A DNA stretch of 64,000 nucleotides, from contig CM000151.3 of the NCBI GenBank assembly GCA_000004695.1, positions 512,001 through 576,000 on the forward strand, read 5' to 3'. This document shows positions 24-26,700 of the stretch, piece after piece. Positions within the stretch are counted from its first letter, which is position 1, and each line of letters opens with the position of its first letter. The translations under genes were made by a program, and so were the position numbers. The notes under the pieces are model-generated. The model had not been told where the DNA came from. It did not search any database and saw nothing but the letters and a program-made list of their open reading frames with translations. This stretch comes from Dictyostelium discoideum (taxonomy: Eukaryota).

Positions 24-3000
24 ATGTCAAATGTTCTTCATGTTGTTAAAGATATCAAACAAGCTGTAGAACAAATGTATCAATTGTTAACGACAAATGG
101 TCAATTAGTGTTTTTAGAACCACCTTATAAATCAGTTCTAAACGATTCAATCGTTGGTTCATTTGAACAATGGTGGTCATTCACTGATACTGATATTAGA
201 AAAGATAGATGTGGTATGCCTCAACAAAGTTGGTATCAATTATTAAATTCGTGTAATTTTAAAGACATTGTAATGTCTAAAGAATGCATTTTCTTTGGAT
301 CAGTAATACAGGCACAAAAACCACCAATTTCTTTATTGAATTCTCAACCAAAGTATGATAATATAATTATATATGGTGGCAGTATTAATTCAAGTTTTGT
401 AGAAAACATCAAATTAGATTCAAATTCAAAAAGTTTATTTCAAATTGAAACTATTCAAGAATTTAATAAATTAATAAGTAAATCAACAATTACAAACGAT
501 TCAATAGTTTATTTCATAAAAACATTAGAAACATTATCATTGGATAATTTTAAACAAATAACTCTTGAATATATTGAAATCAATCAAAAACTATTACAAA
601 TTAATAGTTTATGTAAACATGTATTAATTGTTAGTGATTCAAGAAAAACAAACTATTTAGCATCATCAGCTATTGGTGCAGCAAGATACTTTGATGAATT
701 CCCACTATTGAAATTACACACATTAGATTTTGATTATGATTCAACTCAAAATTATATAAATTCAAAAAATAACAAAATGGTTCAATTCATTAATATCTTG
801 ACAGATTCCAAAACAAATGTTCATAAAGAAATGATTATAATTAATAACAAAGTATATTATGAAATAGTTCAAAAAGAGAAAAATCTAAAATTAAAATACA
901 ATTCAGAATCTTTTGAAAATCAAAATAATTTAATGTGTTCGTTATCACCAAATTTAGAATATCAATTACAATCAAAACAAATTAAATTAAGAGATAATCA
1001 AGTTGAAGTTAAAACAATTGCAACTGGTATCAATTATAAAGATTATTTAAATTTTAGTGGTTCAAATAGCAACGGTGATGACAATACAGGTTTACCACAA
1101 TTTGGATATGAATTTTCAGGTATTATAACAAGAGTTGGTAATAATGTAAAAGATTATAAAGTTGGTGATAATGTATTTGGTTTATCAAATTCTTGTACAT
1201 CATCTCACATTGTTACAAATTTTAAAAAAATTCAAATAAAACCTTCAAAAATAAGTCATATTGAAGCATCATCAATTCCAATTGATTATTTAACATCATT
1301 TATGAGTTTATTTAATGTTGGAAGTTTAAATATTGAAGATAATGAATCGATTTTAATTCATTTAGGTAGAGATGGTTTTGGGTTATCAACATTTGAAATA
1401 TTAAAATGGAAAGGTTTTAAATCAAATTTATTCGTTACAGTTAATTCAGATAAAACTAAACAATATCTTTTAAAAAAATATGGTGATTTAATTACTGGAA
1501 TTTATTCAAACACAGATAAAAGTTATGTGGCAGAAATAAAAAACAAATTAATTAAATTAGGTTCAAAAAAGAAAGGAGTAGATTTAATATTAAATACATT
1601 ACCAAGTGATTTTATGGATTCAAATTTCAAACTATTAACAAAGTATGGTAGAATAATTGATTTAAATTCAAATCATTTAAATCAAAGTGAATTTTTAAAA
1701 AATATCAATTTTAAATATAATCATGGTTACCATAACTTTGAGTTATCATTATTTCAAAAAAATAAAATTCTCAAATGTTTAAATGAAATTTCAAATGCTA
1801 TTGAAAATGGAGAATTAAAAACTATTCCAATTAAAGAATTTACAAATTTAAATATTAAAGATGCCATCAAATACATTACCAACGGTAACATTGAAAAAAT
1901 TACAGTTAGTCATGATCATGAAATTTATAGTGATATTATTTATAGATATTTAGATGAAAAAGAGTTTTCAATATTAAAATCAAATTATCAAATTAATTCA
2001 AATAATTTAGGTAAAAATATATTAATTACAGGTCAATCAGGTATTATTTTAGAAATATTAAAATGGATCATTAAATATTCAAATATTAACACAATTGAAA
2101 ATGTTATTATTCTTTCAAGATCATCATTAAAATGGGAATTAGAATTATTAATTAATCAAACTAAACTATCAAATAATAATATTAAATTCCATTTCAAGAG
2201 TGTTGATGTTGGTGATAGTGAACAAGTTGATAATGCAATCAATGATATACTAAATGAAAACCAACAAATTAGAAATATTGATTCAATATTCCATTTTGCA
2301 TTTCAACAAATTGCATGTAAAGTTCAAGAAATCAATATGAAGCATTTAAATATTTCACATGGAGCAAAATCAATGGGTGCAATTAATTTACATAATCAAT
2401 CAATTAAACGTAATTGGAAATTAATTAATTTTGTTATGGCTTCTTCTGCACTTTCATTTATAGATTCAACAGATCAATGTACATATGCTTGTGCAAATAC
2501 TCTATTAGATTCATTTTCAAAATACAGAGTATCACTTGGATTACCATCAACTTGTATTAACCTTGGTTTAATTGAATCAACTGGTTTCGTTTCAAAGAAT
2601 GAATCGATTTCAGTATTTTTAGATGGCAATGGTATTATCCCAACACCAATCAATCGAGTTTTAGGTCTTTTAGATTTACAAATTCAAAATGCTAGTAAAT
2701 TCACAAATTCAATGATTTCAAATTTCAAACCCTCAAAATTTAAAAATAATCAACAAATATCATTATTTTTAAAATTTGACTACTTGATGAATTTAAAAAA
2801 CAATAGTGAACAAACTAAAAAAGAGAATACTGGAAATAAAAACATTGATGAATTATTCATTGAGAAAGTTTCAGAATTATTTTCAATGGATGAATCAAAA
2901 ATAAATAAAAATCTTAGATTAATCGATTATGGTGCAGATTCATTAATAATAGTTCAATTAAAGAATTGGATAGATAAAGAAATTGGTATAAATTTAATAA

Positions 3001-4313
3001 CAATTCAACAACTTCAAAATAATACAATTAATATTTCAATTAAAATGATATTAAATTCATTAATGAAAAACAATCAAAATAAATACCTACCTTCAAATAG
3101 AATTGATTATTGGAAGAATGAAATGAAATTTGAAGAATCTATTAAACCAATACCAAATGAAATTCGATCAAGAAATAATAACTCAGGAAAAATTATTTTA
3201 TTAACTGGTACAACTGGTTTTTTAGGTGGTTTCTTGCTATTCAATATGTTAAGATTAGATTCATGTAAATTAATTTATTGTTTGATTAGGAATAAAAGTA
3301 AATCAAGTTATCCATTAGATGAAATTATAAATAATTTAAAATATCATCAACTTTATGAAAAATTAAATAAATCACAAATTTCAAAGATTATACCGATTAT
3401 TGGTGATTTATCAATGAATAAACTTGGTCTTTCAAATGATGATTATGAAACAATTTCAAAAAATGTAAATTTAATTATCAATCCAGGTGCAGATATTAAT
3501 CAAAAATCAAGTTATCAAGATTGTAAATTAGTAAATGTTAATGGAGTAAAAGAAATTATTAAATTATCATTATCATCTTTAAAACAAAGGATACCAATTG
3601 TAAACTTTTCATCATTTTCAGTATTTTTCAATCAATCACTTGATAAGAATTTCGATGAATCAGTTTTACCATCAATTGATAATATTGATAATTTACCAAC
3701 AGAATATATGAAGAGTAAAGTTGTGGGAGAATACATTTTATTGGAAGCTTCAAAAAATTATAATATACCATCAATTTTAATTAGACCACCAAGTATATTT
3801 TTAAATCCAGAAACAGGTATTGGTCATAGTAGTGATCTCACTTTATTAATGATCCAATCATGTTATGAATTAGGTTATTGCCCAAATCAAATTTTAAATG
3901 GTTTTATTTTAATTAATACAATTACATGGTTATCAAATAATATTACAAATATTATAATGAATGATAATTGTTGGACAAATTCAAAAATGAATATTTATAA
4001 TGTACATGGTAAACAAATTCAATCAAGTTTAATAATTAAACCACTTGAAAAACATTTCAATTGTAAACAAATCAACAATAATGATTGGATTGATATGGTT
4101 AATAATTCAAATAAAAAATCATGTATTAAATTAAAATCATTCCATTCTTTAGAGAATATTTTTAAAAGTGAAAACAAAGGATATAAATCCAATGAAAGTC
4201 AAAGCATTTCATTATCAACCAAATCATTACTAGAATCAATGGGTTCATACAATACTGATCTTAAAATCACTGATAAAATGATTATTTCTCATATTAAACA
4301 TATTTTTAAATAA
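24..4313 (+). CDS. Type I iterative polyketide synthase, paralog 1, 3' portion only (cMT C-terminal part, ER, KR, ACP, C-terminal thioester reductase R domain); 5' end lies upstream of the window
   Basis: 1429-aa ORF open from the window start and >90% identical at nucleotide level to the 3' two-thirds of the PKS at 29447..38308. It contains ER-like 'GYEFSGIITRVGNNVKDYKVGDNVFGL', a KR Rossmann motif 'ITGQSGIILEIL' with 'YACAN' Y-x3-N, an ACP 'GADSL' phosphopantetheine site, and an R-domain 'LLTGTTGFLGGFLL' (TGxxGxxG) plus 'YMKSK' (YxxxK). Confidence 0.9.
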   Translation: MSNVLHVVKDIKQAVEQMYQLLTTNGQLVFLEPPYKSVLNDSIVGSFEQWWSFTDTDIRKDRCGMPQQSWYQLLNSCNFKDIVMSKECIFFGSVIQAQKPPISLLNSQPKYDNIIIYGGSINSSFVENIKLDSNSKSLFQIETIQEFNKLISKSTITNDSIVYFIKTLETLSLDNFKQITLEYIEINQKLLQINSLCKHVLIVSDSRKTNYLASSAIGAARYFDEFPLLKLHTLDFDYDSTQNYINSKNNKMVQFINILTDSKTNVHKEMIIINNKVYYEIVQKEKNLKLKYNSESFENQNNLMCSLSPNLEYQLQSKQIKLRDNQVEVKTIATGINYKDYLNFSGSNSNGDDNTGLPQFGYEFSGIITRVGNNVKDYKVGDNVFGLSNSCTSSHIVTNFKKIQIKPSKISHIEASSIPIDYLTSFMSLFNVGSLNIEDNESILIHLGRDGFGLSTFEILKWKGFKSNLFVTVNSDKTKQYLLKKYGDLITGIYSNTDKSYVAEIKNKLIKLGSKKKGVDLILNTLPSDFMDSNFKLLTKYGRIIDLNSNHLNQSEFLKNINFKYNHGYHNFELSLFQKNKILKCLNEISNAIENGELKTIPIKEFTNLNIKDAIKYITNGNIEKITVSHDHEIYSDIIYRYLDEKEFSILKSNYQINSNNLGKNILITGQSGIILEILKWIIKYSNINTIENVIILSRSSLKWELELLINQTKLSNNNIKFHFKSVDVGDSEQVDNAINDILNENQQIRNIDSIFHFAFQQIACKVQEINMKHLNISHGAKSMGAINLHNQSIKRNWKLINFVMASSALSFIDSTDQCTYACANTLLDSFSKYRVSLGLPSTCINLGLIESTGFVSKNESISVFLDGNGIIPTPINRVLGLLDLQIQNASKFTNSMISNFKPSKFKNNQQISLFLKFDYLMNLKNNSEQTKKENTGNKNIDELFIEKVSELFSMDESKINKNLRLIDYGADSLIIVQLKNWIDKEIGINLITIQQLQNNTINISIKMILNSLMKNNQNKYLPSNRIDYWKNEMKFEESIKPIPNEIRSRNNNSGKIILLTGTTGFLGGFLLFNMLRLDSCKLIYCLIRNKSKSSYPLDEIINNLKYHQLYEKLNKSQISKIIPIIGDLSMNKLGLSNDDYETISKNVNLIINPGADINQKSSYQDCKLVNVNGVKEIIKLSLSSLKQRIPIVNFSSFSVFFNQSLDKNFDESVLPSIDNIDNLPTEYMKSKVVGEYILLEASKNYNIPSILIRPPSIFLNPETGIGHSSDLTLLMIQSCYELGYCPNQILNGFILINTITWLSNNITNIIMNDNCWTNSKMNIYNVHGKQIQSSLIIKPLEKHFNCKQINNNDWIDMVNNSNKKSCIKLKSFHSLENIFKSENKGYKSNESQSISLSTKSLLESMGSYNTDLKITDKMIISHIKHIFK

Positions 4314-7477: not shown

Positions 7478-8114
7478 ATGAATAATTTTAAGAATATAAA
7501 TTTAATAGAGAAAGGAGTTGCAATTGTTGGTATTGGATTTAGAATTCCTTCTGGTAATAATGAAAATTCAATCAGTTCACCAGATGATTTATTTAATAAT
7601 TTAAAGAATGGTTTTGATGGTGTTAGTAGTACATCAGAAAGATGGAGTGACAATTTTCATAAATTAGGTGAAATTAGTAGTCCAAATGCAGGTTTATTAC
7701 CATTTAATGAATGCAAATCATTCGATCCATTATTTTTTGGTATTAATCCATCCGAAGCACCATTGATTGATCCTCAACAAAGATTATTATTAAAATGTAC
7801 ATGGGAAGCATTAGAAGATGCATCTATTGATCCAATTTCAATTCGTGGTACAAATACTTCAGTTTTCATTGGTTCTTCAAATATTGATTATTTACATACA
7901 AATAAACATCAAGACTCAGTTTTAAAAAATGTAATAGCACAATCCACCTGTGCAATTTCAAATAGAATATCATATTGTTTCGATTTTAATGGTCCATCAT
8001 TATCAATTGATACTGCATGTTCATCATCATTAAATGCAATTTCTCAAGGTTATCATTCAATATTAAATGGTACTTCTGATATCTCAATTGTTGGTGGTGT
8101 AAATTTAATATTAG
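7478..8114 (+). CDS. PKS paralog 2, exon 1 (ketosynthase N-terminal half incl. active-site Cys '[10 protein letters not shown]')
   Basis: ATG at 7478; ORF '[28 protein letters not shown]...VGGVNLILG' ends at a GTAAGG donor at 8115. Confidence 0.85.
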
Positions 8115-8186
8115 GTAAGGATTAAATATATATATTTTAAAAATACACTCATTAATTAAATTTAATTTATTTAAATATTTTACTAG
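8115..8186 (+). other. Intron 1 of PKS paralog 2 (72 bp, phase 1, GTAAGG...TACTAG)
   Basis: Joining the g at 8114 to the 'at' at 8187 gives '...VNLILG|DVETTKAYSYLSMLSKTHGKCKAFD', the canonical KS continuation; exon 1 and exon 2 ORFs are in the same frame and the intron length is a multiple of 3. Confidence 0.8.
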
Positions 8187-11100
8187 ATGTTGAAACGACA
8201 AAAGCATATTCGTATTTAAGCATGTTAAGTAAAACACATGGTAAATGTAAAGCATTTGATGAAAGTGGTGATGGTTTTACACGTGGTGAATGTGCTGGTG
8301 TTGTAGTTTTAAAGAATTTACAAGATGCAGTAAAAGATGGTAATAGAATTTATTGTGTAATTAATGGTTCAAGTTCAAATGTTGATGGTAATGGTAATAT
8401 GGATAAAGTTAACTTTTATTCGCCATCAAAGCAATCACAATTTAATAATATTAATTCAGCATTTAAATCAACCAATGAAAAACTTTCAGTAAATGAAATT
8501 CAATATATCGAAGCACATGGTACTGGTACTAAAACAGGCGATCCAATTGAAACTGAAGCAATTTCAATGGCTTTTAAAAATAGAGATAAATCAACACCAA
8601 TTCTAATTGGTTCAATTAAAAGTAATATTGGTCATTGTGAAGCTGGTTCAGGTGTTGCATCATTAATCAAATGTTGTTTAATGTTTAAATATCAATGCTT
8701 TTTACCAAACATTCATTTCAAAAATCCAAATCCATTAATTAAATTCAATGAATGGAATTTAAAAGTTGTAACATCACCAATTCCATTCAACAGGAAAAAT
8801 GAAAAACCAGTTTCAATGATGATTAATAACTTTGGTGTAACAGGTTCAAATTGTTGTTTACTTATTTCAGAGTTTAAAAAACAAGATTATGAGCCATATG
8901 AAAACAACTACAAAAGTAATAATAAAAATATATTAATACCATTCTCAGCAAATTCATCAAATTCATTAAATCAATACCAATCAAAATTTAAAAATATAAT
9001 TAATAATCAATTCAATTTTATTGATTTTACCGCAAATCAAATTTATTCAAAATCAAATTATCTTTGTCAAAGATCAGTTATAGCTGCAAGTAATTCAAAT
9101 GAACTTTTTGAAAAAATTTTAAATAAAAAACAAATTCAAACTAAAAATTCAATCATTTCGAATATGTCATTCAAAGGAAAGAACCCAATTACAATTTTTG
9201 TTTTTTCAGGTCAAGGATCACAATATCCTAAAATGGCTTTAGAATTATATAATAATGAAGTAATCTTTAAGAAGTCAATTGATTTAATCAATTCAAAATT
9301 ATCAAAATACTATGGTTATTCAGTTTTAGAAAAATTAAGGTCGATAGGAGATGATGATACCACTTCCATTCATGATCCAAATATTTCACAACCAGCAGTG
9401 TGTATGATTTCAGTATCACTATTTGAATTGTATTGCCATTGGGGAGTAAATCCATCATTTATTCTTGGTCATAGTCTTGGTGAAATTTCAGCATCATATT
9501 GTTCTGGAATGATAGACTTAGATACATTCTGTTATACAGTTTATCACAGATCAATAGCGCAAACTAAAACACACGGTAATGGTAGAATGTTATCAATCAA
9601 TATCAGTGATGAAGAATTTAAATCAATGTATTCTCAAAAGTATCCACAAATTGAAATAGCATGTTATAATTCACCTCAATCAATTGTTGTGGCAGGTAAT
9701 GAATCAATATTAAATGAAATTTCAAAAGAATTAAAAGAAAAAGAAATTTTCACTGCAATGTTAGGTTCATTATCATCATTCCATACAAGTAGTCAGCAAT
9801 GTACAAAAGATAGTGTATTAAAACTAAATATTCAAAGCAATCAACCAAAAGTACCAATATTTTCAACAGTTACAACAAATTTATTTAATGAATCAAATCG
9901 ATTTAATTCACAATATGTTTACGATAATATTATTAATCCAGTTAGATTCACACAAACAATTTCAAATATTTATAAACATATCGAATCAAATCAATTAAAT
10001 AATGATATTGTATTCATTGAAATTGCACCACATCCAACATTATCATTTTATATTAAACAAATGGTACCATCAAGTTTAAATGAATCAGTTTCAGTTTATT
10101 CAGCACTTCACAAGAAAAAGAATGATGTCGAAGAGTTTCAACAAACCATTTCAAATTTATATTGTCAAAATGGATATAATATTAATTTTAAATGTCAATT
10201 TAATAATAAAAAATCAAATAAAAAAATTGATTTACCTCTTTACCAATGGAGTGACGAAACATACTTCGCTCAAACTCAAACACTTGAACAACATAGAGAA
10301 GAAGGACCACCAATTGACCATCTTGGTATATCAAACTCTTTTATTTCACCATTTAATAATTCATATAAAACATTAATCGATATAAACAATAAACCATTCC
10401 AATATCTTAAAGGTCATATGGTTAAAGGTAAATACTACTTCCCAGGTTGTGGTTATATCGATAATATTATTCAACTTTATAAAAATCAAGATATTTTTAT
10501 TAGTTTTATAGAATTTAAAACACCATTAATTTTAATTGAAGGTATCAATCAATGTTTACAAACAAACATTCAACAAACTGGTAAAAGTGAATATCGTGCA
10601 CAATTTCATTTCAAAGATCAAAAATCAAATCAATGGACTCAATCGTCAAATTCAAATTTCCAATTATTAGATCATGGTAATGATATACCATCAAATTATA
10701 ATATTGAAGAAATTATTAAAAACAAATGTAATTTAAGCAAATTAACAAAGAATGAACTTTATACACATATAAAATCAAAAACTGGTTTAAATTATACTGG
10801 AGTTTTTAAAGGTGTTACTGAATGTTATATAGGTGATAACTGTTCATTATCAGTTGTATCTTTAGAATCTCAAACAAACTCATTTTTAAATATACCAATA
10901 TTAGATACATGTTTACATGGAATGTTAGTATTAATAAATGATCAATGTCAAATTGTATTTGATAAAACCATTGGATTTAAATATTATTCATCAAACATAC
11001 CAGCATATTTCAAAGAAAATAAAGATTGTTTTTATGTTTATTCCCATTTAAAATCAAAGAGTGCTGATTCATACCATGGATCTATAATTGTAATGTTATC

Positions 11101-14100
11101 AGATGGTTCAGTTTTATATGAAATTCAAGAAGTTGTTTGTAAATCATTAATTCCAATCAAAGATTCACTTAAAATTGAATATCCAAATGATGAATTATAC
11201 AAAGTTCATTTACAATCAAAAGATTCTCAAATTCCAACACCATCATATTTCAAATCAATTATTTATGAAAATGATTCTTTCCATTCTATTGTAAATATTC
11301 CAGAAGATTTATTCAAATATATTTCAACATTGTTTTATAAAGATATTATAAAAAGATGTCCAGAAATTAATATCAATAAAATTAATTCTCATAGTGTTAA
11401 TGAAATTATTTCAAGTTTCAGTAAAATTTCAAAACACGAAAGATTATTTAGATTTGTATTTGAAACAATAAAAGAGAATGGTATTCTTAATAGTTTGGAA
11501 GAAAATGATGATGCTTATTTCGAATTTAATGAATTAGTTATAAAATCATCAAGAATTATTTCAAAATTATTATTTCCATTAGAAAATGATAATGATAATG
11601 AAGATTTACCTCAATCATTATTTCAAAATGGTTTAATGGATAAATTTTATAAATGCAACAATTTTAAAAAGAAAAATCAAATTATTTCACATGTTATAAA
11701 ACATTCAATTAAAGAGATTATTAATAATAATATTATAATTAGAATTTTAGAATTTGGAGGAGGTACTGCATCATTATCAGTTGAAGTTATTGGAGAAATC
11801 GTTACATTACTCCAAGAGAATCCAAATTATCAAGTTGAAATCGAATATACATGGAGTGATATTTCACCTGCATTCATAGCAGATGCAAAGAATAAAATCA
11901 ATAAAATCATTAATGATGCTGCTATAACAAATGGATTAAATGTTATTTATCTTCCATTAACAATTGGTGAATCATTGATAGAAACTCAATCAATTAAACC
12001 ATCATATTATGATTTCGTTATAATGTCAAATGTTCTTCATGTTGTTAAAGATATCAAACAAGTGGTAGAACAAATGTATCAATTGTTAACACCAAATGGT
12101 CAATTGGTGTTTGTTGAACCACCTTATAAATCAATTCTAATTGATTCAATAGTTGGTTCATTTGATCAATGGTGGTCATTCACTGATACTGATATTAGAA
12201 AAGATAGATGTGGTATGTCTCAACAAAGTTGGTATCAATTATTAAAGACATGTAATTTTAAAGACATTGTAATGTCTAAAGAATGCATTTTCGGATCAGT
12301 AATACAGGCACAAAAACCACCAATTTCTTTATTGAATTCTCAACCAAAACATGATAATATAATTATATATGGTGGTGGTAATAATTCACGTTTTTTTGAA
12401 AACATCAAATTATATTCAAATTCGAAAAGTTTAATTCAAATTGAAACTATTCAAGAATTTAATCAATTTATAAATAAATCTACAATTACAAACGATTCAA
12501 TCATTTATTTTATAAAAACATTAGAAACATTATCATTGGATAATTTTGCACAAATAACTCTTGAATATATTGAAATCAATAAAAAACTATTACAAATTAA
12601 TAGTTTATGTAAACATGTATTAATTGTTAGTGATTCAAGAAAAACTAACTATTTAGCATCATCAGTTGTTGGTGCTGCAAGATACTTTGATGAATTCCAA
12701 CAATTGAAATTACATACGTTAGATTTTGATTATGATTCAACTCAAAATTATATAAATTCAAAAAATAACAAAATGGTTCAATTCATTAATATATTAACAG
12801 ATTCAAAAACAAATGTTCATAAAGAAATGATTATAATTAATAATAAAGTATATTATGAAATAGTTCAAAAAGAGAAAAATCTAAAATTAAAATACAATTC
12901 AGAATCTTTTGAAAATCAAAATAATTTAATGTGTTCATTATCACCAAATTTAGAATATCAATTACAATCAAAACAAATTAAATTAAGAGATAATCAAGTT
13001 GAAGTTAAAACAATTGCAACTGGTATCAATTATAAAGATTATTTAAATTTTAGTGGTTCAAATAGCAACGGTGATGACAATACAGGTTTACCACAATTTG
13101 GATATGAATTTTCAGGTATTATAACAAGAGTTGGTAATAATGTAAAAGATTATAAAGTTGGTGATAATGTATTTGGTTTATCAAATTCTTGTACATCATC
13201 TCACATTGTTACAAATTTTAAAAATATTCAATTAAAACCTTCAAAAATAAGTCATATTGAAGCATCATCAATTCCAATTGATTATTTAGCATCATTTATT
13301 AGTTTATTTAATGTTGGTAGTTTAAATATTGAAGATAATGAATCAATTTTAATTCATTTAGGTAGTGATGGTTTTGGATTATCAACATTTGAAATATTAA
13401 AATGGAAAGGTTTTAAATCAAATTTATTCGTTACAGTAAATTCAGATGAAACTAAACAATATCTTCTAGATAGATATGGTGATTTTATTAGTGGAATTTA
13501 TTCAAACACAGATAAAAGTTATGTTACAGAAATAAAAAACGAATTAATTAAATTAGGTTCAAAAAAGAAAGGAGTAGATTTAATATTAAATACATTACCA
13601 AGTGATTTTATGGATTCAAATTTCGAGTTATTAACAAAGAATGCAAGAATAATTGATTTAACTTCAAATCATTTAAATCAAAGTGAATTTTTAAAAAATA
13701 TCAATTTTAAATATAATCATAGTTACCACAACTTTCAGTTATCATTATTTCAAAAAAATAAAATACAAAAATGTTTAAATGAAATTTCAAATGCTATTGA
13801 AAATGGAGAATTAAAAACTATTCCAATTAAAGAATTTACAAATTTAAATATTAAAGATGCCATCAAATACATTACCAACGGTAACATTGAAAAAATTACA
13901 GTTAGCCATGACCATGAAATTTATAGTGATATTATTTATAGATATTTAGATGAAAAAGAGTTTTCAATATTAAAATCAAATTATCAAATTAATTCAAATA
14001 ATTTAGGTAAAAATATATTAATTACAGGTCAATCAGGTATTATTTTAGAAATATTAAAATGGATCATTAAATATTCAAATATTAATACAATAGAAAATGT

Positions 14101-15091
14101 TATTATTCTTTCAAGATCATCATTAAAATGGGAATTAGAGTTATTAATTAATCAAACTAAACTATCAAATAATAATATTAAATTTCATTTCAAGAGTATT
14201 GATGTTGGTGATAGTGAACAAGTTGATAATGCAATCAATGAAATATTAAATGAAAATCAACAAATTACAAATATTGATTCAATATACCATTTTGCATTTC
14301 AACAAATTACATGTAAAGTTCAAGAAATCAATATGAAACATTTAGATATTTCACATGGAGCAAAATCAATGGGAGCAATTAATTTACATAATCAATCAAT
14401 TAAACGTAATTGGAAATTAATTAATTTTGTTATGGCTTCTTCTGCAATTTCATTAATAGGTTCAACAGATTTATGTACATATGCTTGTGCAAATACTCTA
14501 CTAGATTCATTTTCAAAATACAGAGTATCACTTGGATTACCATCTGCATGTATTAACTTTGGATCAATTGAATCTACTGGTTTCGTTTCAAAGAATGAAT
14601 CAGTTTCAGTATTTTTAGACGGTGGTGGTTTCCATCCAACACCAATCAATCAAGTTTTAGGCCTTTTAGATTTACAAATTCAAAATTCTGGTAAATTCAC
14701 AAATTCAATGCTTTCAAATTTCAAACCCTCAAAATTTAAAAATAATCAACAAATATCATTATTTCTAAAATTTGATTACTTGATGAATTTAAAAAACAAT
14801 AGTGAACAAACTAAAAAAGAGAATATTGGAAATAAAAACATTGATGAATTATTCATTGAGAAAGTTTCAGAATTATTTTCAACCGATGAATCAAAAATAA
14901 ATAAAAATCTTAGATTAATCGATTATGGTGCAGATTCATTAATAATAGTTCAATTAAAGAATTGGATAGATAAAGAAATTGGTATTAATTTAATAACAAT
15001 TCAACAACTTCAAAATAATACAATTAATATTTCAATCAAAATGATATTAAATTCATTAATGAAAAATAATCAATGTGGAAGGGAAATTTAA
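8187..15091 (+). CDS. PKS paralog 2, exon 2: rest of KS, AT, DH, cMT, ER, KR, ACP; terminates 8 codons after the ACP region ('...MKNNQCGREI*'), no reductase domain
   Basis: KS His motifs 'EAHGTGTKTGDP' and 'NIGHCEAGSG'; AT 'FVFSGQGSQYPKMA' and 'GHSLGEISA'; DH 'LKGHMVKGKYYFPGCGY' (H-x3-G-x4-P); MT 'ILEFGGGTASLS'; KR 'ITGQSGIIL'; ACP 'IDYGADSLIIVQL'; stop at 15089-15091 with a junction sequence not seen in the other paralogs. Confidence 0.85.
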
Positions 15092-15461
15092 CTTTTTTTT
15101 TTTCAGGGAAAAAAAGCGCTATTTTACCTACACTGCTTTGTGAAATTTAAATAAAAAACCAATATCTAATAATAATAATAATTAATTTATATTTTTAATA
15201 TGAATGTTTTAATATAATTTATTTAAATAATTAAATTCTAAAAATAAAACTTTTGATTTAAAAAATAAAAAATAAAATAAAAAATTCAAAAAACAGCTCT
15301 ACAAATGTCAAAAGAAAAATTTCTAAAGATATTTCACGGTTTTTTACGAGCTCGAAAATATCTTAGGCGCCTACACAAAAAAATTTTATTTTAATAATAT
15401 GACAACATCACAAAATAAATTTACAGAAAAAAAAAAAAATAAAAAAATAAATTAGAGATGC

Positions 15462-15477
15462 CGGAAATGAAAAAAAA

Positions 15478-15516
<39 letters not shown>

Positions 15517-16348
15517 GCAAAAAAAAAAAAAAAAAAAAAAAAATTTGGTTTTTTTTTTTTTTAATTTTTTTTTTTTAATTTTTTTTTTTATTTTTTTTTT
15601 AAATTAATTTATATTTATTTTAGGAGTCAATCCATTCATCTAAATCTATTTTCTCAACTGCTTTTGGAGTAACTGTTATTGAAAAAATTATATTTATTTG
15701 AGACTGTTGAGAATGTTTTTTTGTTTTATTTTTTTATAAAATATTTAATATACCATCTGGATGAATATTTTTTTATAAAATTTAATTAATTAAATTCTCT
15801 CTTTTTTTATTTATAAACAAAACTATAGAACCAACTGACAACATCTTCATACTCCATTGGAATTCTTCGGCACTCAGAGATTAAAATTAAATGATCCCAT
15901 CATTTTACCATTAGAAGATGGATCGTTTAAACTTGTTTTTGGTTATCCACCTTTTGATATTGAAATAATTGAGGTTAAATATTTGGGTGATGGTAGAATT
16001 GGAATAAGATACCATGTCTTATTACCATCAAGAGAAGATCTAGAAACAATAGTTGGTTATGATTATTCATCCAGATGGTATATTAAATATGATTGTCTAC
16101 CACTCAAAACCACAAGCTTTCACTTTCTTCATCACTCTGCCTCTACAAAAGAACAAGAAAAATATCAAAGTTGTAAAATCGATATTGAAAAAGATATAAA
16201 ATATTTTTCAATAACAGTTACTCCAAAAGCAGTTGAGAAAATAGATTTAGATGAATGGATTGACTCCTAAAATAAATATAAATTAATTTAAAAAAAAAAT
16301 AAAAAAAATAAAAAAAATAAAAAAAAACAATTTTTTTTTTTTTTTTGC

Positions 16349-16390
<42 letters not shown>

Positions 16391-16412
16391 CATTTCCAGC
16401 GTCTCTATTAAA
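15462..16412. repeat. Nested inverted-repeat (foldback-like) element, ~950 bp overall, with ~510-bp central region; candidate non-autonomous DNA transposon or hairpin-forming repeat
   Basis: Outer arms 15462..15545 vs reverse complement of 16330..16412 ('tagagatgccggaaatgaaaaa...aaatttggcaaaaa' vs 'tagagacgctggaaatgaaaaa...aaatttggcaaaaa'). Inner arms 15602..15690 vs reverse complement of 16202..16290 appear identical by eye. T-rich and A-rich spacers between arms are also complementary. Confidence 0.5.
15857..16270 (+). CDS. Hypothetical 137-aa ORF inside the inverted-repeat element (no recognisable domain); 3' end lies within the right inner repeat arm
   Basis: ORF 'MEFFGTQRLKLNDPIILPLEDGSFKLVFGYPPFDIEIIEVKYLGDGRIGIRYHVLL...' is not low-complexity, unlike most of the neighbouring intergenic sequence; no similarity to any family I recognise. 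Confidence 0.3.
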   Translation: MEFFGTQRLKLNDPIILPLEDGSFKLVFGYPPFDIEIIEVKYLGDGRIGIRYHVLLPSREDLETIVGYDYSSRWYIKYDCLPLKTTSFHFLHHSASTKEQEKYQSCKIDIEKDIKYFSITVTPKAVEKIDLDEWIDS

Positions 16413-16815
16413 AAAAACAAAATAAAAAAAAAAAAAAAATTAAAAAAATAAAAAAAAAATTAAAAAAATAAAACAAAAAAACATTTTCAAATAAAAGAAA
16501 AAAGAAAAATATTGTGGATCGAAGAGAATCGATTTTTTTTTTTTTTTTTTATTAATCGTTAGAATTTGCAATTAAATTGCGATTTTTTAATTTTTTTGAT
16601 CTGAAATGAATTTTAAAAATCATAATATTAATAATAGTAATAAAAAAATTAATGATAAATAATTTATTTATTTAATTTTATATATTTTGGAGTTTTCTTT
16701 CGAAACTTTTCAGTCGAAAAATAAAAAATTAAGAAAAATGAAAAAAAAAAGTTTTGGTTCACGCTTTACAATATTCTTATAATATAAATTGTGTTGTTCC
16801 TTTATTTATTATGAT

Positions 16816-18190
16816 CATTTTTTTTTTTTGGTATAAATAAACTATTGTAGTATACAATTAGTATGTTATTTTTATTTATTTATTTTAGGTTTTTTAGTTT
16901 TTGTGAATTTAAAATGGTATGTTATTTTAGATGTGGTAATTAATAATTAATTGGTAGTGTAATTGTTGGAATTGGTTCATTTGTGTTTATGCTCCATTCT
17001 TTTTTAAATTTTTTGATGGTTTCGGACCATTGGGTTTCTTTTTGAGTTTTTGTGAGGTTGTTTTTAATTGAGTATTGGTTAAAGTTTGATAATGTTCTTG
17101 AATATTCCAATCTTATTAGCTTGTGCCATTTTGATTTTAATATATCATAATCTAGTGTTGTGTTGTTTATTTGGTTGTTCCAATTGTCAATTGATTGAGT
17201 TATATTGATGTCAAATAATGATTTGCATAACCATATTTGGTGAATAACTAATGAGATTATGTTCCAATATGCATGTGTTCTGACTAGATCAAGATTTGTT
17301 TATATAATTCCAGTTGAATCTGTATTTTTTATATTGTGCGTTTTCTGCTAAATGAAAATTAATATTGATAGTTGGATCTGGTTTAAATGCTTTGTTGTTT
17401 GTTTGTGGTTTATAAATGAGTGTGTATAATTTTGTTGTTTGGTTTTTTGTTAGTGACCAGTTTTTGTTTCCATTGCAATTTTTATATATAAAATATTTTA
17501 ATTTGTCGTGGTTTATGAAGTTGATTGTGTGCTGACAATTGAAAAACAAATGACCATAGGGATCATTATTCATTTCATTGTTGCAAATGGGGCAAACTTT
17601 GTTGTGTAGATGATTAATTGGAAGACATCTAGCATGGAATCTTTGCATTGTATCACGGCCTTTTGGATCTTTTAATTTTTGAATTTTGACAAATAGTTGG
17701 TCGTATGTGTATTTCCATAATAGTTGTATTGATTGTTGGTGCGAAGTAAGAAGTATATCTGAATATTTCTTGCCAACATAGTCTTTTGATTTACATTGGT
17801 GATTGTTGAGTATTGTCGAGTAGATTTCTTTGAGTGTTGGTGGTAGTGAAATATTATTTGTGGTTAATGTTTGAGAGGTTTGGTTTTTTGTTAATATTGG
17901 TTGTAGGGTTTGAACTTTATCTTTTAGATGTCCAATTTGAGTTGCATAGTTTTCCCATTCTTTTTTGATTTTTATAAGGTATGGAGAAGAGATTGATTTG
18001 TTGATGATTTGATCCATCCAACTTATCATGTATATTGAATTGTTTGCAGATTTATGCTTTTGTAAAAATCTGTTGTATATCCAAATCTTTTGAGCAACTT
18101 GTCGTAATTGTATATTCCACATACCCCAACCACCTTCTTTTAATGGTGTTTCAACAAATTGAAACAAATTGAAACAAGTTTTTTTAATGT
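16816..18190 (-). mobile_element. 5'-truncated non-LTR (TRE/LINE-like) retrotransposon fragment: ORF2 C-terminal region with CCHC finger, 3' UTR and short poly(A)
   Basis: The minus-strand ORF ends with 'CPICNNEMNNDPYGHLFFNC' (C-x2-C-x10-H-x4-C), as at the C-terminus of non-LTR ORF2 proteins. The + strand is locally G+T-rich rather than AT-rich; the minus strand runs into a 12-nt A-tract at 16816..16827. Confidence 0.5.
17289..18167 (-). CDS. Retroelement ORF2 C-terminal fragment (292 aa, truncated at its 5' side)
   Basis: ORF-track protein with a C-terminal CCHC-type finger and no homolog among the cellular genes in the window. Confidence 0.5.
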   Translation of the reverse strand: MFQFVETPLKEGGWGMWNIQLRQVAQKIWIYNRFLQKHKSANNSIYMISWMDQIINKSISSPYLIKIKKEWENYATQIGHLKDKVQTLQPILTKNQTSQTLTTNNISLPPTLKEIYSTILNNHQCKSKDYVGKKYSDILLTSHQQSIQLLWKYTYDQLFVKIQKLKDPKGRDTMQRFHARCLPINHLHNKVCPICNNEMNNDPYGHLFFNCQHTINFINHDKLKYFIYKNCNGNKNWSLTKNQTTKLYTLIYKPQTNNKAFKPDPTININFHLAENAQYKKYRFNWNYINKS

Positions 18191-18689
18191 TTAAAAAAGG
18201 AATCTCTAAAAATAACCTATATTTAAAAATAATAAAATTTTTTAAAATTCCAACTTTTTAAAAATGGTTTTTTTATTTTTTAATTGAAAAAAAAAAAAAA
18301 ATTAAACCCAATTAAACAAAATTTTTTTTCTAATTAATCAAACATGATATTATTTTCTCCAAATTTAAAATATTTTTAAATTATTCCACATCATAAAATG
18401 TATACATATGTGTATTTTATTGTGAAAAATCCCCTTGTTAATGAAGGGAAATTTTTTTTGAAATTTCACTACAAAAAGATTTGGTATGAAAATTTGAAAA
18501 AGACAAAAAAAAAAAAAAAATTAAAATTAAAAAAAATATCTTCACGTGGGAATTTATTTTCAGAAAAACCTTTTTTTTTTTTCATTTTTTATTTTTTTTT
18601 ATTTTTTAAATTCTTAATAATAAATAAAATGACAGTAAAATAAACATAAAAACAAAAACCAAATTTACAGACTTTATTTTTAAAATCCC

Positions 18690-18790
18690 CAACATGATAC
18701 CGATTATCTCCAAATTTAAAATGTTCCACACTATATAAAAAAAAGTGGTACTTGATAATTTTAATTAATATTCATTTTTTTTTATTGGTT
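18690..18790 (+). promoter_or_regulatory. Conserved PKS upstream block (putative promoter of PKS paralog 3); a partial second copy lies at 18340..18415
   Basis: 'atctccaaatttaaaatgttccacac...aaaaaaaagtggtacttgataattttaattaatattcatt...tcacctatttt' matches the block upstream of paralog 2; 'tctccaaatttaaaatatttttaaattattccacatcataaaatg' at 18352-18400 repeats its first part. Confidence 0.3.
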
Positions 18791-18980
18791 CACCTATTTT
18801 TAACTGCTTCTTACTATAAAAAATAATAGTAAAAAAAAAAGTAAATAATGCAAGTTTCTAAAAAAAAAAAAAAATATAAATTAAAAAAAAAAAAAACAAA
18901 ATTTAATTTTAAAATTAATTTAGAATTATTTCTGGTAATAACTAATAGAGATATTCCTCAACTAAAATAACTAAGCACCA

Positions 18981-19691: not shown

Positions 19692-22600
19692 ATGTTGGAA
19701 TGATAAAAGCATATTCGTATTTAAGCATGTTAAGTAAAACACATGGTAAATGTAAAGCATTTGATGAAAGTGGCGATGGTTTTACACGTGGTGAATGTGC
19801 TACTATTGTAGTTTTAAAAAATTTACAAGATGCAGTTAAAGATGGTAATAGAATTTATTGTGTAATTAATGGCTCAAGTTCAAACGTTGATGGCGGCGGT
19901 CATATGGATAAAGTTAACCTTTATTCACCATCAAAGCAATCACAATTTAATAATATTAATTCAGCATTTAAATCAACCAATGGTAAACTTTCAATTAATG
20001 ATATTCAATATATCGAAGCACATGGTACTGGTACTAAAACAGGCGATCCAATTGAAACTGAAGCAATTTCAATGGCTTTTAAAAATAGAGATAAATCAAC
20101 ACCAATTCTAATTGGTTCAATTAAAAGTAATATTGGTCATTGTGAAGCTGGTTCAGGTGTTGCATCATTAATCAAATGTTGTTTAATGTTTAAATATCAA
20201 TGCTTTTTACCAAATATTCATTTCAAAAATCCAAATCCATTAATTAAATTCAATGAATGGAATTTAAAAGTTGTAACATCACCAATTCCATTCAACAAAA
20301 GAATTAATGAAAAACCAGTTTCAATGATGATTAATAACTTTGGTGTAACAGGTTCAAATTGTTGTTTACTTATTTCAGAATTTAAAAAACAAGATTATGA
20401 ATCATATGAAAACAACAACAACAACAAAAGTAATCATAAAAATATATTAATACCATTCTCAGCAAATTCATCAAATTCATTAAATCAATACCAATCAAAA
20501 TTTAAAAATATAATTAATAATCAATTCAATTTTATTGATTTTACCGCAAATCAAATTTATTCAAAATCAAATTATCTTTATCAAAGATCAGTTGTAATTG
20601 CAAGTAATTCAAATGAACTTTTTGAAAAAATTTTAAATAAAAAACAAATTCAAACTAAAAATTCAATCATTTCGAATATGTCATTCAAAGGAAAGAACCC
20701 AATTACAATTTTTGTTTTTTCAGGTCAAGGATCACAATATCCTAAAATGGCTTTAGAATTATATAATAATGATGAAATTTTTAAGAAGTCAATTGATTTA
20801 ATCGATTCAAAATTATCAAAGTACTATGGTTATTCAGTATGGGGGAAGTTAACAACGATCAAAGATGATGACTTGACCTCAATACATGATCCAATTTTCG
20901 CACAACCAGCACTGTGTATGCTTTCAGTATCACTATTTGAAATATATTGCCATTGGGGAGTAAATCCATCATTTATTCTTGGTCATAGTCTTGGTGAAAT
21001 TTCAGCAGCATATTGTTCTGGAATGATCGATTTAGATACATTCTGTTATACAGTTTATTACAGATCAATCGCCCAATCTAAAACAAATGGTTGTGGTAGA
21101 ATGTTATCAATTAATATCAGTGATGAAGAATTTAAATCAATGTATTCTCAAAAGTATCCACAAATTGAAATTGCGTGTTATAATTCACCTCAATCAATTG
21201 TTGTGGCAGGTAATGAATCAATATTAAATGAAATTTCGAAAGAATTAAAAGAAAAAGAAATTTTCACTGCAATGTTAGGTTCATTATCATCATTCCATAC
21301 AAGTAGTCAGCAATGTACAAAAGATAGTATATTACAACTAAACATTGAAAGTAATCAACCAAAAGTACCAATATTTTCAACAGTTACAACAAATTTATTT
21401 AATGAATCAAATCGATTTAATTCACAATATGTTTATGATAATATTATCAAACCAGTTAAATTCACACAAACAATTTCAAATATTTATAAACATATCGAAT
21501 CAAATCAATTAAATAATGATATTGTATTCATTGAAATTGCACCACATCCAACAATATCATTTTATATTAAGCAAATGGTACCATCAAGTTTAAATGAATC
21601 AGTTTCAGTTTATTCAGCACTTCACAAGAAAAAGAATGATGTCGAAGAGTTTCAACAAACCATTTCAAATTTATATTGTCAAAATGGATATAGTATTAAT
21701 TTTAAATGTCAATTGGAAAATAAAAAATCAAATCAATCAATAAATTTACCACTTTACCAATGGGATGATGAATTATACTTCGCTCAAACTCAAACACTTG
21801 AACAATATACAAAAGAAGGACCACCAATCGATCATCTTGGTCTATCAAACTCTTATTATTCACCATTTAAAAATTCATATAGAACATTTATTGATATAAA
21901 TAATAAACCATTCCAATATCTTAAAGGTCATATGGTTAAAGGTAAATACTACTTCCCAGGTTGTGGTTATATCGATATTATTATTCAACTTTATAAAAAT
22001 CAAGATATTTTTATTAGTTTTATTGAATTTAAAACACCATTAATTTTAATTGAAGGTATCAATCAATATTTACAAACAAACATTCAACAAACTGGTAAAA
22101 GTGAATATCGTGCACAATTTCATTTCAAAGATCAAAAATCAAATGAATGGATTCAATCATCAAATGCAAATTTCCAATTATTAGATCATGGTAATGATAT
22201 ACCATCAAATTATAATATTGAAGAAATTATTAAAAACAAATGTAATTTGAGCAAATTAACAAAGAATGAACTTTATACACAAATAAAATCAAAAACTGGT
22301 TTGAATTATACTGGTGTTTTTCAAGGTGCTACTGAATGTTATTTAGGTAATGATTGTTCATTATCAGTTTTATCTTTAAAATCTCAAACAAATTCATTTT
22401 TAAATATACCAATTTTAGATACATGTTTACATGGAATGTTAGTATTAATAAATGATCAAAGTCAAATTGTATTTGATAAAGCCATTGGATTTAAATATTA
22501 TTCATCAAACATACCATCGGATCTTAAAGAATATAAAGATAGTATTTATGTTTATTCCAATTTAAAACCAAAAAATGCTGATTCATACCATGGATCTATT

Positions 22601-25600
22601 ATAGTAATGTTATCAGATGGTTCAGTTTTATATGAAATTCAAGAAGTTATTTTTAAATCATTAATTCCAATCAAACATTCACTTAAAATTGAGTATCCAA
22701 ATGATGAATTATACAAAGTTCATTTACAATCAAAAGATTCTCAAATTCCAACGCCATCATCATTCAAATCAATTATTTATGAAAATGATTTCTTCCATTC
22801 TGCACTTAATATTCCAGAAGATTTATTCAAATATATTTCAACATTATTTTATAAAGATATTATAAAAAGATGTCCAGAAATTAATATCAATAAAATTAAT
22901 TCTCATAGTGTTAATGAAATTATTTCAAGTTTCAGTAAAATTTCAAAAAATCAAAGATTATTTAGATTTGTATTTGAAACAATAAAAGAGAATGGTATTC
23001 TTAATAGTTTGGAAGAAAATGATGATGCTTATTTCGAATTTAATGAATTAGTTATTAAATCATCAAAAATTATTTCAAAATTATTATTCCCACTAGAAAG
23101 TGATAATGATAATGAAGATTTACCTCAATCATTATTTCAAAATGGTTTAATGGATAAAATTTATAAATGCAGTTATTTAAGAAAGAAGTATCAAATGATT
23201 TCACATGTCATTATACATTCAATTAAAGAGATTATTAATAATAATATTATAATTAGAATTTTAGAATTTGGAGGAGGCACTGCGTCATTATCAGTTGAAG
23301 TTATTGGAGAAATCGTTGCATTACTTCAAGAGAATCCAAATTATCAAGTTGAAATCGAATATACATGGAGTGATATTTCACCTGCATTCATAGCAGATGC
23401 AAAGAATAAAATCAATAAAATCATTAATGATGCTGCTATAACAAATGGATTAAATGTTATTTATCGTTCATTAACAATCGATGAATCATTGCTTGAAAAT
23501 CAAGCAATTAAACCATCATATTATGATTTCGTTATAATGTCAAATGTTCTTCATGTTGTTAAAAATATTAAACAAGCTGTAGAACAAATGTATCAATTGT
23601 TAACACCGAATGGTCAATTGCTATTTATAGAACCACCTTATAAATCAGTTCTAATCGATTCAATCATTGGTTCATTTGAACAATGGTGGTCATTCACTGA
23701 TACTGATATTAGAAAAGATAGATGTGGTATGTCTCAACAAAGTTGGTATCAATTATTAAAGACATGTAATTTTAAAGACATTTTAATGTCAAAAGAATGC
23801 ATCTTTGTTGGGTCAGTAATACATGCACAAAAACCACCAATTTCTTTATTGAATTCTCAACCAAAACATGATAATATAATTATATATGGTGGTGGTGGTA
23901 ATTTAAGTTTTGTAGAAAACATCAAATTAGATTCAAATTCAAAAAGTTTAATTCAAATTGAAACTATTCAAGAATTTAATCAATTATTAAGTCAATCAAC
24001 AATTACAAATGATTCAATAATTTATTTCATAAAAACATTAGAAACATTATCATTGGATAATTATAAACAAATAACTCTTGAATATATTGAAATCAATCAA
24101 AGACTATTACAAATCAATAGTTTATGTAAACATGTATTAATTGTTAGTGATTCAAGAAAAACTAACTATTTAGCATCATCAGTTGTTGGTGCTGCAAGAT
24201 ACTTTGATGAATTCCAACAATTGAAATTACACACATTAGATTTTGATTATGATTCAACTCAAAATTATATAAATTCAAAAAATAACAAAATGGTTCAATT
24301 CATTAATATCTTGGTGGACTCCAAAACAAATGTTCATAAAGAAATGATTATAATTAATAACAAAGTATATTATGAAATAGTTCAAAAAGAGAAAAATCTA
24401 AAACTAAAATACAATTCAGAATCTTTTGAAAATCAAAATAATTTAATGTGTTCATTATCACCAAATTTAGAATATCAATTACAATCAAAACAAATTAAAT
24501 TAAGAGATAATCAAGTTGAAGTTAAAACAATTGCAACTGGTATCAATTATAAAGATTATTTAAATTTTAGCGGTTCAAATAATAATAATGGTGATGACAA
24601 TACAGGTTTACCACAATTTGGATATGAATTTTCAGGTATTATAACAAGAGTTGGTAATAATGTAAAAGATTATAAAGTTGGTGATAATGTATTTGGTTTA
24701 TCAAATTCTTGTACATCATCCCACATTGTTACAAATTTTAAAAATATTCAATTAAAACCTTCAAACATAAGTCATAACGAAGCATCATCAATTCCAATTG
24801 ATTATTTAACATCATTTATGAGTTTATTTAATGTTGGTAGTTTAAATATTGAAGATAATGAATCAATTCTAATTCATTTAGGTAGTGATAGTTTTGGATT
24901 ATCAACATTTGAAATATTAAAATGGAAAGGTTTTAAATCAAATTTATTCGTTACAGTTGATTTGGACGAAACTAAACAATATCTTCTAGATAGATATGGT
25001 GATTTTATTACTGGAATTTATTCAAACACAGATAAAAGTTATGTTACAGAAATAAAAAACGAATTAATTAAATTAGGTTCAAAAAAGAAAGGAGTAGATT
25101 TAATATTAAATACATTACCAAGTGATTTTATGGATTCAAATTTCGAGTTATTAACAAAGAGTGGTAGAATAATTGATTTAACTTCAAATCATTTAAATCA
25201 AAGTGAATTTTTAAAAAATATCAATTTTAAATATAACCATGGTTACCACAACTTTCAGTTATCATTAATTCAAAAAAATAAAATACAAAAATGTTTATAT
25301 GAAATTTCACATGCTATTGAAAATGGAGAATTAAAAACTATTCCAATTAAAGAATTTACAAATTTAAATATTAAAGATGCCATCAAATACATTACCAACG
25401 GTAACATTGAAAAAATTACAGTTAGTCATGATCATGAAATTTATAGTGATATTATTTATAGATCTTTAGATGAAAAAGAGTTTTCAATATTAAAATCAAA
25501 TTATCAAATTAATTCAAATAATTTAGGTAAAAACATATTAATTACAGGTCAATCAGGTATTATTTTAGAAATATTAAAATGGATCATTAAATATTCAAAT

Positions 25601-26599
25601 ATTAACACAATTGAAAATGTTATTATTCTTTCAAGATCATCATTAAAATGGGAATTAGAATTATTAATTAATCAAACTAAACTATCAAATAATAATATTA
25701 AATTTCATTTCAAGAGTGTTGATGTCGGTGATAGTGAACAAGTTGATAATGCAATCAATGAAATATTAAATGAAAATCAACAAATTACAAATATTGATTC
25801 AATATACCATTTTGCATTTCAACAAATTACATGTAAAGTTCAAGAAATCAATATGAAACATTTAGATATTTCACATGGAGCAAAATCAATGGGTGCAGTT
25901 AATTTACATAATCAATCAATTAAACGTAATTGGAAATTAATTAATTTTGTTATGGCTTCTTCTGCACTTTCATTAATAGGTTCAACAGATCAATGTACAT
26001 ATGCCTGTGCAAACCTATTATTAGATTCATTTTCAAAATACAGAGAATCACTTGGATTACCATCTGCTTGTATTAACCTTGGGTCAATTGAATCAACTGG
26101 TTTCGTTTCAAAGAATGAATCAATTTCAGAATTTACAGATGGCATTGGTTACGTTCCAACACCTATCAATCTAGTTTTAGGTCTTTTAGATTTACAAATT
26201 CAAAATGCAGGTAAATTTACGAATTCAATGCTTTCAAATTTAATATCATCAAAATTTAAAAATATTCAACAAACATCATTATTTCTAAAATTTGATTACT
26301 TGATGAATTTAAATGACAACAGTGAACAAACTAAAAAAGAGAATATTGGAAATAAAAACATTGATGAATTATTCATTGAGAAAGTTTCAGAATTATTTTC
26401 AACGGATCAATCAAGAATAAATAAAAATCTTAGATTAATTGATTATGGCGCAGATTCATTAATAATAGTTCAATTAAAGAATTGGATAGATAAAGAAATT
26501 GGTATAAATTTAATAACAATTAAACAACTTCAAAACAATACAATTAATATTTCAATCAAAATGATATTAAATTCATTAATGAAAAATAATCAAATATAG
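19692..26599 (+). CDS. PKS paralog 3, exon 2: KS(C-term)-AT-DH-cMT-ER-KR-ACP; stops 3 codons into the linker that precedes the reductase domain in the full-length paralogs ('...MKNNQI*')
   Basis: Same motif set as paralog 2. A premature TAG sits at the position where the paralog at 29447 continues 'NIDDNNKDLPSNRIDYW...' into the R domain. Confidence 0.85.
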
Positions 26600-26700
26600 A
26601 TGACAATAATAATACATACAATAGATATTAACCCAATGAAAATCAAAACATTACTAGAATTATCAACAGATAATGGGTGATCTTGAAATTTTTTATTTAA
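26600..26700 (+). pseudogene. Remnant of the 3' end of a deleted thioester-reductase (R) domain directly downstream of the PKS paralog 3 stop
   Basis: 'acaatagatattaacccaatgaaaatcaaaacattactagaattatcaacagataatgggtgatcttgaaatt' aligns to the last ~90 nt of the R-domain coding sequence of the paralog at 38160..38250 ('aatagatataaacccaatgaaaatcaaagca...cattactagaatcaatgggctcatacaacactgatcttgaaatcac'). Confidence 0.7.

Follow-up and report, generated by a model that had tools for sequence, protein, structure and literature searches.

The fungal highly reducing polyketide synthases (HR-PKSs) LovB and LovF of lovastatin biosynthesis are iterative enzymes without a built-in release domain: their polypeptides stop at the ACP or close to it, and the chain is off-loaded by hydrolysis or with the help of a distinct hydrolase or acyltransferase. 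The polyketide synthases (PKSs) of Dictyostelium fall in a clade of their own. The lineage-specific expansion of their genes is long established (PMC3188802). According to a structural survey of 2025, 21 of the 40 D. discoideum PKSs carry an off-loading domain after the ACP, which is a chalcone synthase in two of them and a thioester reductase in the others; therefore, 19 of the 40 end at the ACP. The same survey marks the off-loading status of each PKS and links the chromosomally adjacent homologues (PMC12828403). PKS5, whose domain order is that of the enzyme described here and which lacks a reductase, produces two C18 polyenes as free acids, dictyodene A and B, together with an isoleucine condensation product (PMC9618038).

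Previous work has already established pks7, its domain composition and the division of the family into members with a reductase and members that terminate at the ACP. As regards novelty, the original prediction went too far: pks7 is an annotated gene, and the ACP end is seen in about 19 of the 40 D. discoideum PKSs (PMC12828403) as well as in most of the close relatives from sister species. What we add here is the detail of the breakpoint, evidence that the truncation is real and old and that the gene is under selection, and the recurrence of independent truncations in one short linker.

The pks6–pks9 tandem array

We analyzed a window of 64 000 nucleotides of chromosome 2 of D. discoideum AX4 (8.48-Mb record), in which the G+C content is 22–25% and type I polyketide synthase genes lie in a tandem array. 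Only the C-terminal 1429 aa of pks6 (P1; UniProt B0G0Z9) are inside the window (24..4313, + strand). It is followed by pks7 (7478..8114 joined to 8187..15091, + strand; 2513 aa), by pks8 (P3; 18981..19617 joined to 19692..26599; 2514 aa) and by pks9/36 (P4; 29447..30083 joined to 30150..38308, + strand; 2931 aa), the last two being exact matches. The spliced product of pks7 is identical, letter for letter, to UniProt B0G100/XP_001732963.1 (‘Probable polyketide synthase 7’, DDB_G0271614). These tandem paralogs are 7–9 kb each and 91–95% identical. Across residues 1–2508, pks6 and pks9 are 91–93% identical to pks7, and the promoter-proximal sequence and the position of the intron are also common to the three.

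Between pks8 and pks9, at 26982–28453, we observed PKS pseudogene fragments, which consist of a KS N-terminus (aa 4–138, with in-frame stops), an AT region (aa 376–685) and a 36-aa piece from the region around aa 1548–1583. Their protein identity to pks9 is 82–94%.

Domain organization of pks7

The first exon of pks7 (7478..8114, + strand) starts with the ATG at 7478, encodes the start of the KS domain and is followed by a GTAAG donor at 8115. The 72-nt GT..AG intron (8115..8186, + strand) has the same position in pks8 and pks9, and splicing it out yields an unbroken frame of 2513 codons. The second exon (8187..15091, + strand) encodes the remaining KS, AT, DH, MT, ER, KR and ACP, a 5-residue tail and the stop. 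The Pfam domains of the protein are ketoacyl-synt N and C, Acyl_transf_1, Methyltransf_12/23, ADH_N (ER), KR and ACP_SdgA_C, and the KS, AT, DH, (MT), ER, KR and ACP of an iterative type I highly reducing PKS are all present on this single polypeptide. We located the KS motifs DTACSS at 178, HGTGT at 323 and NIGH at 359, the AT motif GHSLGE at 640, the DH motif HxxxGxxxxP at aa 956, the KR motif TGQSG and the ACP motif GADSL at aa 2460–2464, which carries the phosphopantetheine Ser. Every catalytic motif that we checked is intact, with no difference from pks9 or from the pks5-like protein.

The ACP domain of pks7 (aa 2423–2508; 14816..15073, + strand) matches PF23297 (ACP_SdgA_C) with an E-value of 2.3e-31, over profile positions 3–88 of 95. 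The last residue in this match, Q2508, is also the last residue common to the paralogs, and the protein ends at 2513, that is, in an ACP-terminated architecture. After the ACP, Pfam detects no NAD_binding_4, the domain that defines the reductase-terminated PKS subclass, in pks7. Eleven relatives terminate at positions equivalent to the pks7 end.

The 3′ junction of pks7 and the DNA downstream

The pks7 gene ends in ...aat aat caa / tgt gga agg gaa att taa, where CAA (Q2508) is at 15071–15073, the five codons of the post-junction tail (CGREI, a peptide that is not conserved) are at 15074–15088 and the stop TAA is at 15089–15091 (tail and stop together, 15074..15091, + strand). When the four 3′ ends are aligned as DNA, pks7 follows pks6 and pks9 as far as this CAA and diverges sharply beyond it. 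Both this alignment and the Pfam analysis agree with the original prediction that pks7 ends directly after the ACP and is reductase-less, which turned out to be accurate to the base. By pattern search, the window contains a single copy of the 19-nt junction string.

We looked for traces of a reductase downstream. In the 3.9 kb between the stop and the start of pks8 (15091–18981), tblastn gave no reductase remnant at an E-value of 1e-3, and at an E-value of 100 it gave only non-significant low-complexity matches over the pks7–pks8 intergenic region. The best of the weak tblastn matches downstream of pks7 (E = 0.15) lies inside the inverted copy of a small ORF and was judged to be due to chance. 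Nucleotide local alignments of the pks7 flank with the reductase and the 3′ flanks of pks6 and pks9 scored within the range of shuffled sequences. The earlier claim that no reductase remnant lies 3′ of pks7 is thus borne out by tblastn and shuffled alignments as far as 18981. The segment 15074..15180, which contains an AATAAA within a run at about 15147–15155, resembles neither the reductase region nor the sequence 3′ of pks6, pks8 or pks9, and self-BLAST found no common 3′ flank among the four intergenic regions. Self-BLAST, pattern search and Rfam revealed no transposon end, microhomology or donor copy at the break, and the Rfam and tRNA scans gave no match.

The pks7–pks8 intergenic region (15181..18980) holds a small ORF, an inverted partial copy of it and a retrotransposon fragment, and is mostly missing in the strain ACTFIW described below. 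The small ORF, just 3′ of pks7 (15857–16270, + strand), has 137 codons and no Pfam match; in another assembly, a 129-aa gene is annotated at its site. A 248-nt inverted duplication (15453–15699 and 16190–16407; 85% identity) repeats the 3′ end of this ORF. Further downstream, a 292-codon ORF on the − strand (17289–18167) is 97% identical to the multi-copy protein DDB_G0274673, relatives of which carry a reverse-transcriptase domain; by this likeness, it is a 5′-truncated ORF2 fragment of a non-LTR retrotransposon. This fragment is the element nearest to the pks7 break, at a distance of 2.2 kb. As it is part of a 3.2-kb stretch (15084–18275) that is missing from ACTFIW, its arrival or loss was independent of the pks7 junction.

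Reductase-bearing paralogs and truncations in the neighbors

Pks6 and Pks9/36 are like Pks7 up to residue 2508, but unlike it they run on through a linker into the reductase. In pks6, the linker and thioester reductase comprise 411 aa after NNQ (3078..4313, + strand), and in pks9/36 they comprise 420 aa (37046..38308, + strand), with NAD_binding_4 at 37181–37897. Pfam assigns NAD_binding_4 to both continuations (E-values of 4.7e-53 and 6.4e-52 for pks6 and pks9, respectively). The linker is of ∼45 residues, and the reductase that follows it has the TGTTGFLGG and YxxxK motifs. These lengths and domains confirm the ∼420-aa thioester reductase that was ascribed to the full-length paralogs.

The 3′ end of pks8 (26594..26700, + strand) has a different anatomy. 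Pks8 is like Pks7 in architecture and ends in ...SLMKNNQ followed by I and the stop, but unlike pks7 its gene has retained remnants of the linker and the reductase. One base is missing right after CAA, which creates the stop in ATA TAG; the breakpoint is 1–21 nt beyond that of pks7. Nineteen nt of the linker are kept (to 26612), followed by a 5-nt filler and, from 26618, by a reductase remnant corresponding to the last ∼100 nt of the reductase coding region: from 26618 onward, pks8 aligns locally with pks9 from 38154 onward, and the translated remnant NRY*PNENQ matches NRYKPNENQ of pks9 with an E-value of 6.6e-4. These remnants prove loss for pks8. Read in this way, the pks8 sequence bears the mark of a ∼1.08-kb internal deletion that removed its reductase independently of pks7.

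Two further copies, in ACTFIW, stop within the linker (...NLPSNRID-stop and ...YLPSN-stop; L006 7340–7400 and L003 17640–17690) and keep 12–18 linker codons. Beyond the break, both have the same sequence (CTAAATTTTAAA.TAATAAAATAATTTT), and theirs is thus a junction of a third type. One of the two is within the array, and the other is on a different contig beside a run of Methyltransf_7 genes. The pks7 junction is therefore not the one-off that had been proposed: at least three independent breakpoints (the pks7, pks8 and ACTFIW ...PSNRID types) cluster in ∼55 nt of the same linker. The tandem array does form the natural series with and without the reductase that was envisaged at the outset, with pks6 and pks9 on one side and pks7 and pks8 on the other.

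Stand-alone NAD_binding_4 proteins are found in D. cf. discoideum and D. purpureum (P0126 and P0127, of 271 and 324 aa). They are 45–57% identical to the pks9 reductase and could be split-off or orphaned reductase domains.

The junction in other assemblies and strains

We compared the locus with other GenBank assemblies. A 3.6-Mb contig of GCA_054883475.1 (L001) is 99.84% identical to positions 1–25128 of the window, with 3 mismatches, and has an identical pks7 junction and flank. This assembly is nearly identical to AX4, and the comparison is thus a test of the sequence and not of the population. The independent assembly, with the same junction within 25 kb of 99.84% identity, answers the concern about assembly collapse that accompanied the original prediction.

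The second assembly, GCA_054859355.1 (locus-tag prefix ACTFIW; contig L002), which was deposited as D. discoideum, has genes that differ by ∼5% from those of AX4. Its array consists of a pks6-like copy, a pks7-like copy, a third reductase-less copy and a pks9-like copy. The junction of the pks7-like copy, ...AATAATCAA/TGTCGAAGGGA..., has the same breakpoint as in AX4, and a pairwise alignment over ∼100 nt showed that the 3′ flank (15074..15180, + strand) is homologous in the two, save for a 17-nt indel. The junction and the flank being common to AX4 and ACTFIW, they mark a single event that predates the split of these lineages (dS = 0.14). From the same junction, the translated tails differ (CGREI-stop in AX4 versus CRRDTGKKNLRNFTIL-stop in ACTFIW), which indicates that the tail is an incidental read-through. 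Of the ‘unique junction’ first proposed, the part that stands is its single copy in the window; the part that does not is its restriction to this sequence, as it is also present in GCA_054883475.1 and ACTFIW.

After the pks7 junction of ACTFIW (L002 17657–18121), there are three copies of a ∼73-nt unit with an internal hairpin (ATGAGAAAT...ATTTCTCAT), the first of which overlaps the segment homologous to AX4 15110–15180. This unit may be a small mobile or satellite element; in the window, its 16-nt core is no more frequent than expected by chance.

In a third assembly, ACTFIR, the region (L005 1–22555) contains a pks6-like gene, a 1.3-kb fragment of the methyltransferase region, a pks9-like gene and a gene for an NDH2-type oxidoreductase. 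Full pks7 and pks8 genes are both absent from it, and the 1.3-kb fragment is closest to pks7 (95.3%). By these comparisons of gene content, the array is fluid and variable in copy number across lineages. The ACTFIW and ACTFIR assemblies, both labeled D. discoideum, differ from AX4 by 5–9% at the nucleotide level even in the flanking single-copy genes. Such a difference is far above the expectation within one species, and these lineages may be cryptic species.

Selection on pks7

Between AX4 and ACTFIW, dN/dS of pks7 is 0.23 overall and 0.14 in the ACP (dS = 0.14), compared with 0.21–0.23 for the orthologues of the reductase-bearing pks9. We also simulated neutral evolution by placing half of the observed substitutions randomly on the pks7 coding sequence in 2000 trials; none of the 2000 ORFs stayed open, and the mean number of stops was 16. 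Even if pks7 itself were not selected, gene conversion between paralogs could help to maintain its frame and to reduce dN/dS. A sliding-window comparison of pks7 with the other AX4 paralogs revealed no stretch that is ≥99% identical, and recent gene conversion is therefore not the reason why the frame is open. The mosaic pattern of the sliding-window identities among the paralogs suggests an older exchange. With its 2513-codon ORF unbroken and dN/dS of 0.23, pks7 does not have the marks of a pseudogene; on these measures, it is an intact gene under purifying selection. The knockout of pks7 is reported to lose a few metabolite features of the fruiting body, which were annotated with amino-acid moieties (PMC12625978).

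Predicted mode of chain release

As the break leaves the carrier domain whole, Pks7 would still build a chain on the ACP, reduced and possibly methylated, like its paralogs. Without the reductase, NAD(P)H-dependent release to an aldehyde or an alcohol would be blocked. The chain would then come off as an acid or, if passed to a nucleophile (an amino acid, for example), as an amide or ester; this release might be spontaneous, or might be aided by a trans-acting, unlinked hydrolase or acyltransferase. Among the genes of the window, none beside pks7 encodes a candidate releasing partner.

The nearest comparison is with Pks5, which is encoded upstream in the same chromosome-2 cluster. Like Pks7, it has the order KS-AT-DH-MT-ER-KR-ACP and ends a few residues past the ACP. 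The nucleotide identity of the two genes is ∼88% (PMC9618038), and the pks5-like protein is 82% identical to that of pks7. They differ in the C-terminus: the Pks5-type genes have a conserved one of their own (...ILNFLKKINK), common to D. citrinum, whereas the break in pks7 is abrupt and the read-through tail that follows it is not conserved. From the products of Pks5 and the amino-acid features lost in the pks7 knockout, we infer that release from Pks7 is likely to be non-reductive, by hydrolysis or transfer. LovB and LovF belong to a different clade, and their partner enzymes are known and clustered, while no partner is identifiable beside pks7.

Origin of the reductase-less architecture

The explanation that we prefer, and that we consider probable as a whole, is that pks7 encodes a functional, ACP-terminated iterative HR-PKS, which lost its reductase in a single old deletion or rearrangement and releases its product non-reductively. 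The event would have occurred in a reductase-bearing ancestor of the pks6/7/8/9 group. It would have stripped pks7 of its reductase, of all the linker and of the 3′ flank that it originally had, and fused the Q2508 codon to unrelated AT-rich DNA, which would have supplied a stop after five codons.

An artefact might be suspected, either of assembly (tandem copies collapsed into one) or of annotation (an overlooked intron with a reductase exon beyond it), as tandem paralogs of 7–9 kb at 91–95% identity are prone to collapse. However, the same junction is present in the separate assembly GCA_054883475.1, which matches 25 kb at 99.84% identity, and in the divergent strain ACTFIW, and this rules out an artefact for practical purposes. 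Reductase-coding sequence in the window is moreover limited to pks6 and pks9, and the bases at the break (CAA/TGTGGA) are unlike the GTAAG donor of the real intron; this reading has next to no chance of being correct. It might alternatively be argued that pks7 is a young pseudogene or a crippled enzyme, the chains of which stall on the ACP because truncation took away its sole release domain, and that its ORF is kept open solely by exchange with working paralogs. The locus is indeed without a release domain or an obvious partner gene, only ‘a few’ metabolite features were tied to the pks7 knockout (PMC12625978), and ACTFIR holds the 1.3-kb fragment in place of pks7 and pks8, which indicates that the gene is dispensable in some lineages. 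Nevertheless, two lineages with a dS of 0.14 between them, over which ∼16 stops are expected under neutrality, both have an open ORF, the dN/dS of pks7 equals that of pks9, the catalytic motifs are intact and near-identical conversion tracts are absent. About half of the family works without a reductase, including the proven producer PKS5 (PMC12828403, PMC9618038), and the pks7 knockout, after all, does lose features (PMC12625978). We therefore regard a defunct pks7 as highly improbable.

A more serious alternative, though one that we still hold to be unlikely, is that pks7 was reductase-less from the beginning and that gene conversion homogenized its body with the pks6 and pks9 bodies as far as the ACP end, the junction being the point where its old 3′ end resumes. 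Outside the D. discoideum complex, the nearest relatives come from D. citrinum, D. dimigraforme and D. firmibasis, and each of them is ∼2513–2530 aa long and lacks the reductase, with a natural stop within a few codons of Q2508; a neighbor-joining tree of the bodies nests the pks6–9 group among them, and the mosaic identities of the paralogs are suggestive of past conversion. On the other hand, a conversion tract normally requires homology on both sides, and the match of the D. citrinum 3′ flank to the linker (18 of 22 positions) was equalled by 290 of 2000 shuffles and is not significant. Other reductase-less copies of this subclade are demonstrably descended from reductase-bearing genes: pks8 keeps part of the linker and 3′ remnants of the reductase, and the ACTFIW copies keep 12–18 linker codons. 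In local BLAST, the pks9 reductase is 65% identical to that of RB653_009810 of D. firmibasis, in congruence with 63% for the bodies, and among the proteins compared, D. discoideum reductases outside the pks6/9 group reach at most 47% identity to that of pks9. The congruent divergence and the lack of a closer donor fit a vertically inherited reductase. This vertical inheritance, together with the losses demonstrated in neighboring copies, favors loss for pks7. It appears the more likely direction of change, and we rate it as considerably more probable than an ancestrally reductase-less pks7.

Implications for polyketide off-loading in social amoebae

Beside pks6 and pks9, pks7 offers a natural and nearly isogenic comparison: the genes are ∼92% identical as far as the ACP and differ in whether a release domain follows. 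This comparison could be used to ask how the chemistry of off-loading shapes the polyketides of amoebae, and a pks7 knockout already exists. The anatomy of the breakpoint is useful for engineering or dating these genes, although the advance is a modest one and will not surprise specialists.

The clustering of the breakpoints leads us to a broader and more tentative proposal, namely that the linker is a recurrent ‘cut here’ site, that the truncated enzymes are selected like their reductase-bearing parents and that tandem duplication followed by clean deletion of the release domain is a regular evolutionary switch of off-loading. We consider this possible, with the balance tilting somewhat against it. 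If it is true, social amoebae would toggle a polyketide scaffold between reductive off-loading, to an aldehyde or an alcohol, and non-reductive off-loading, to an acid or an amide.
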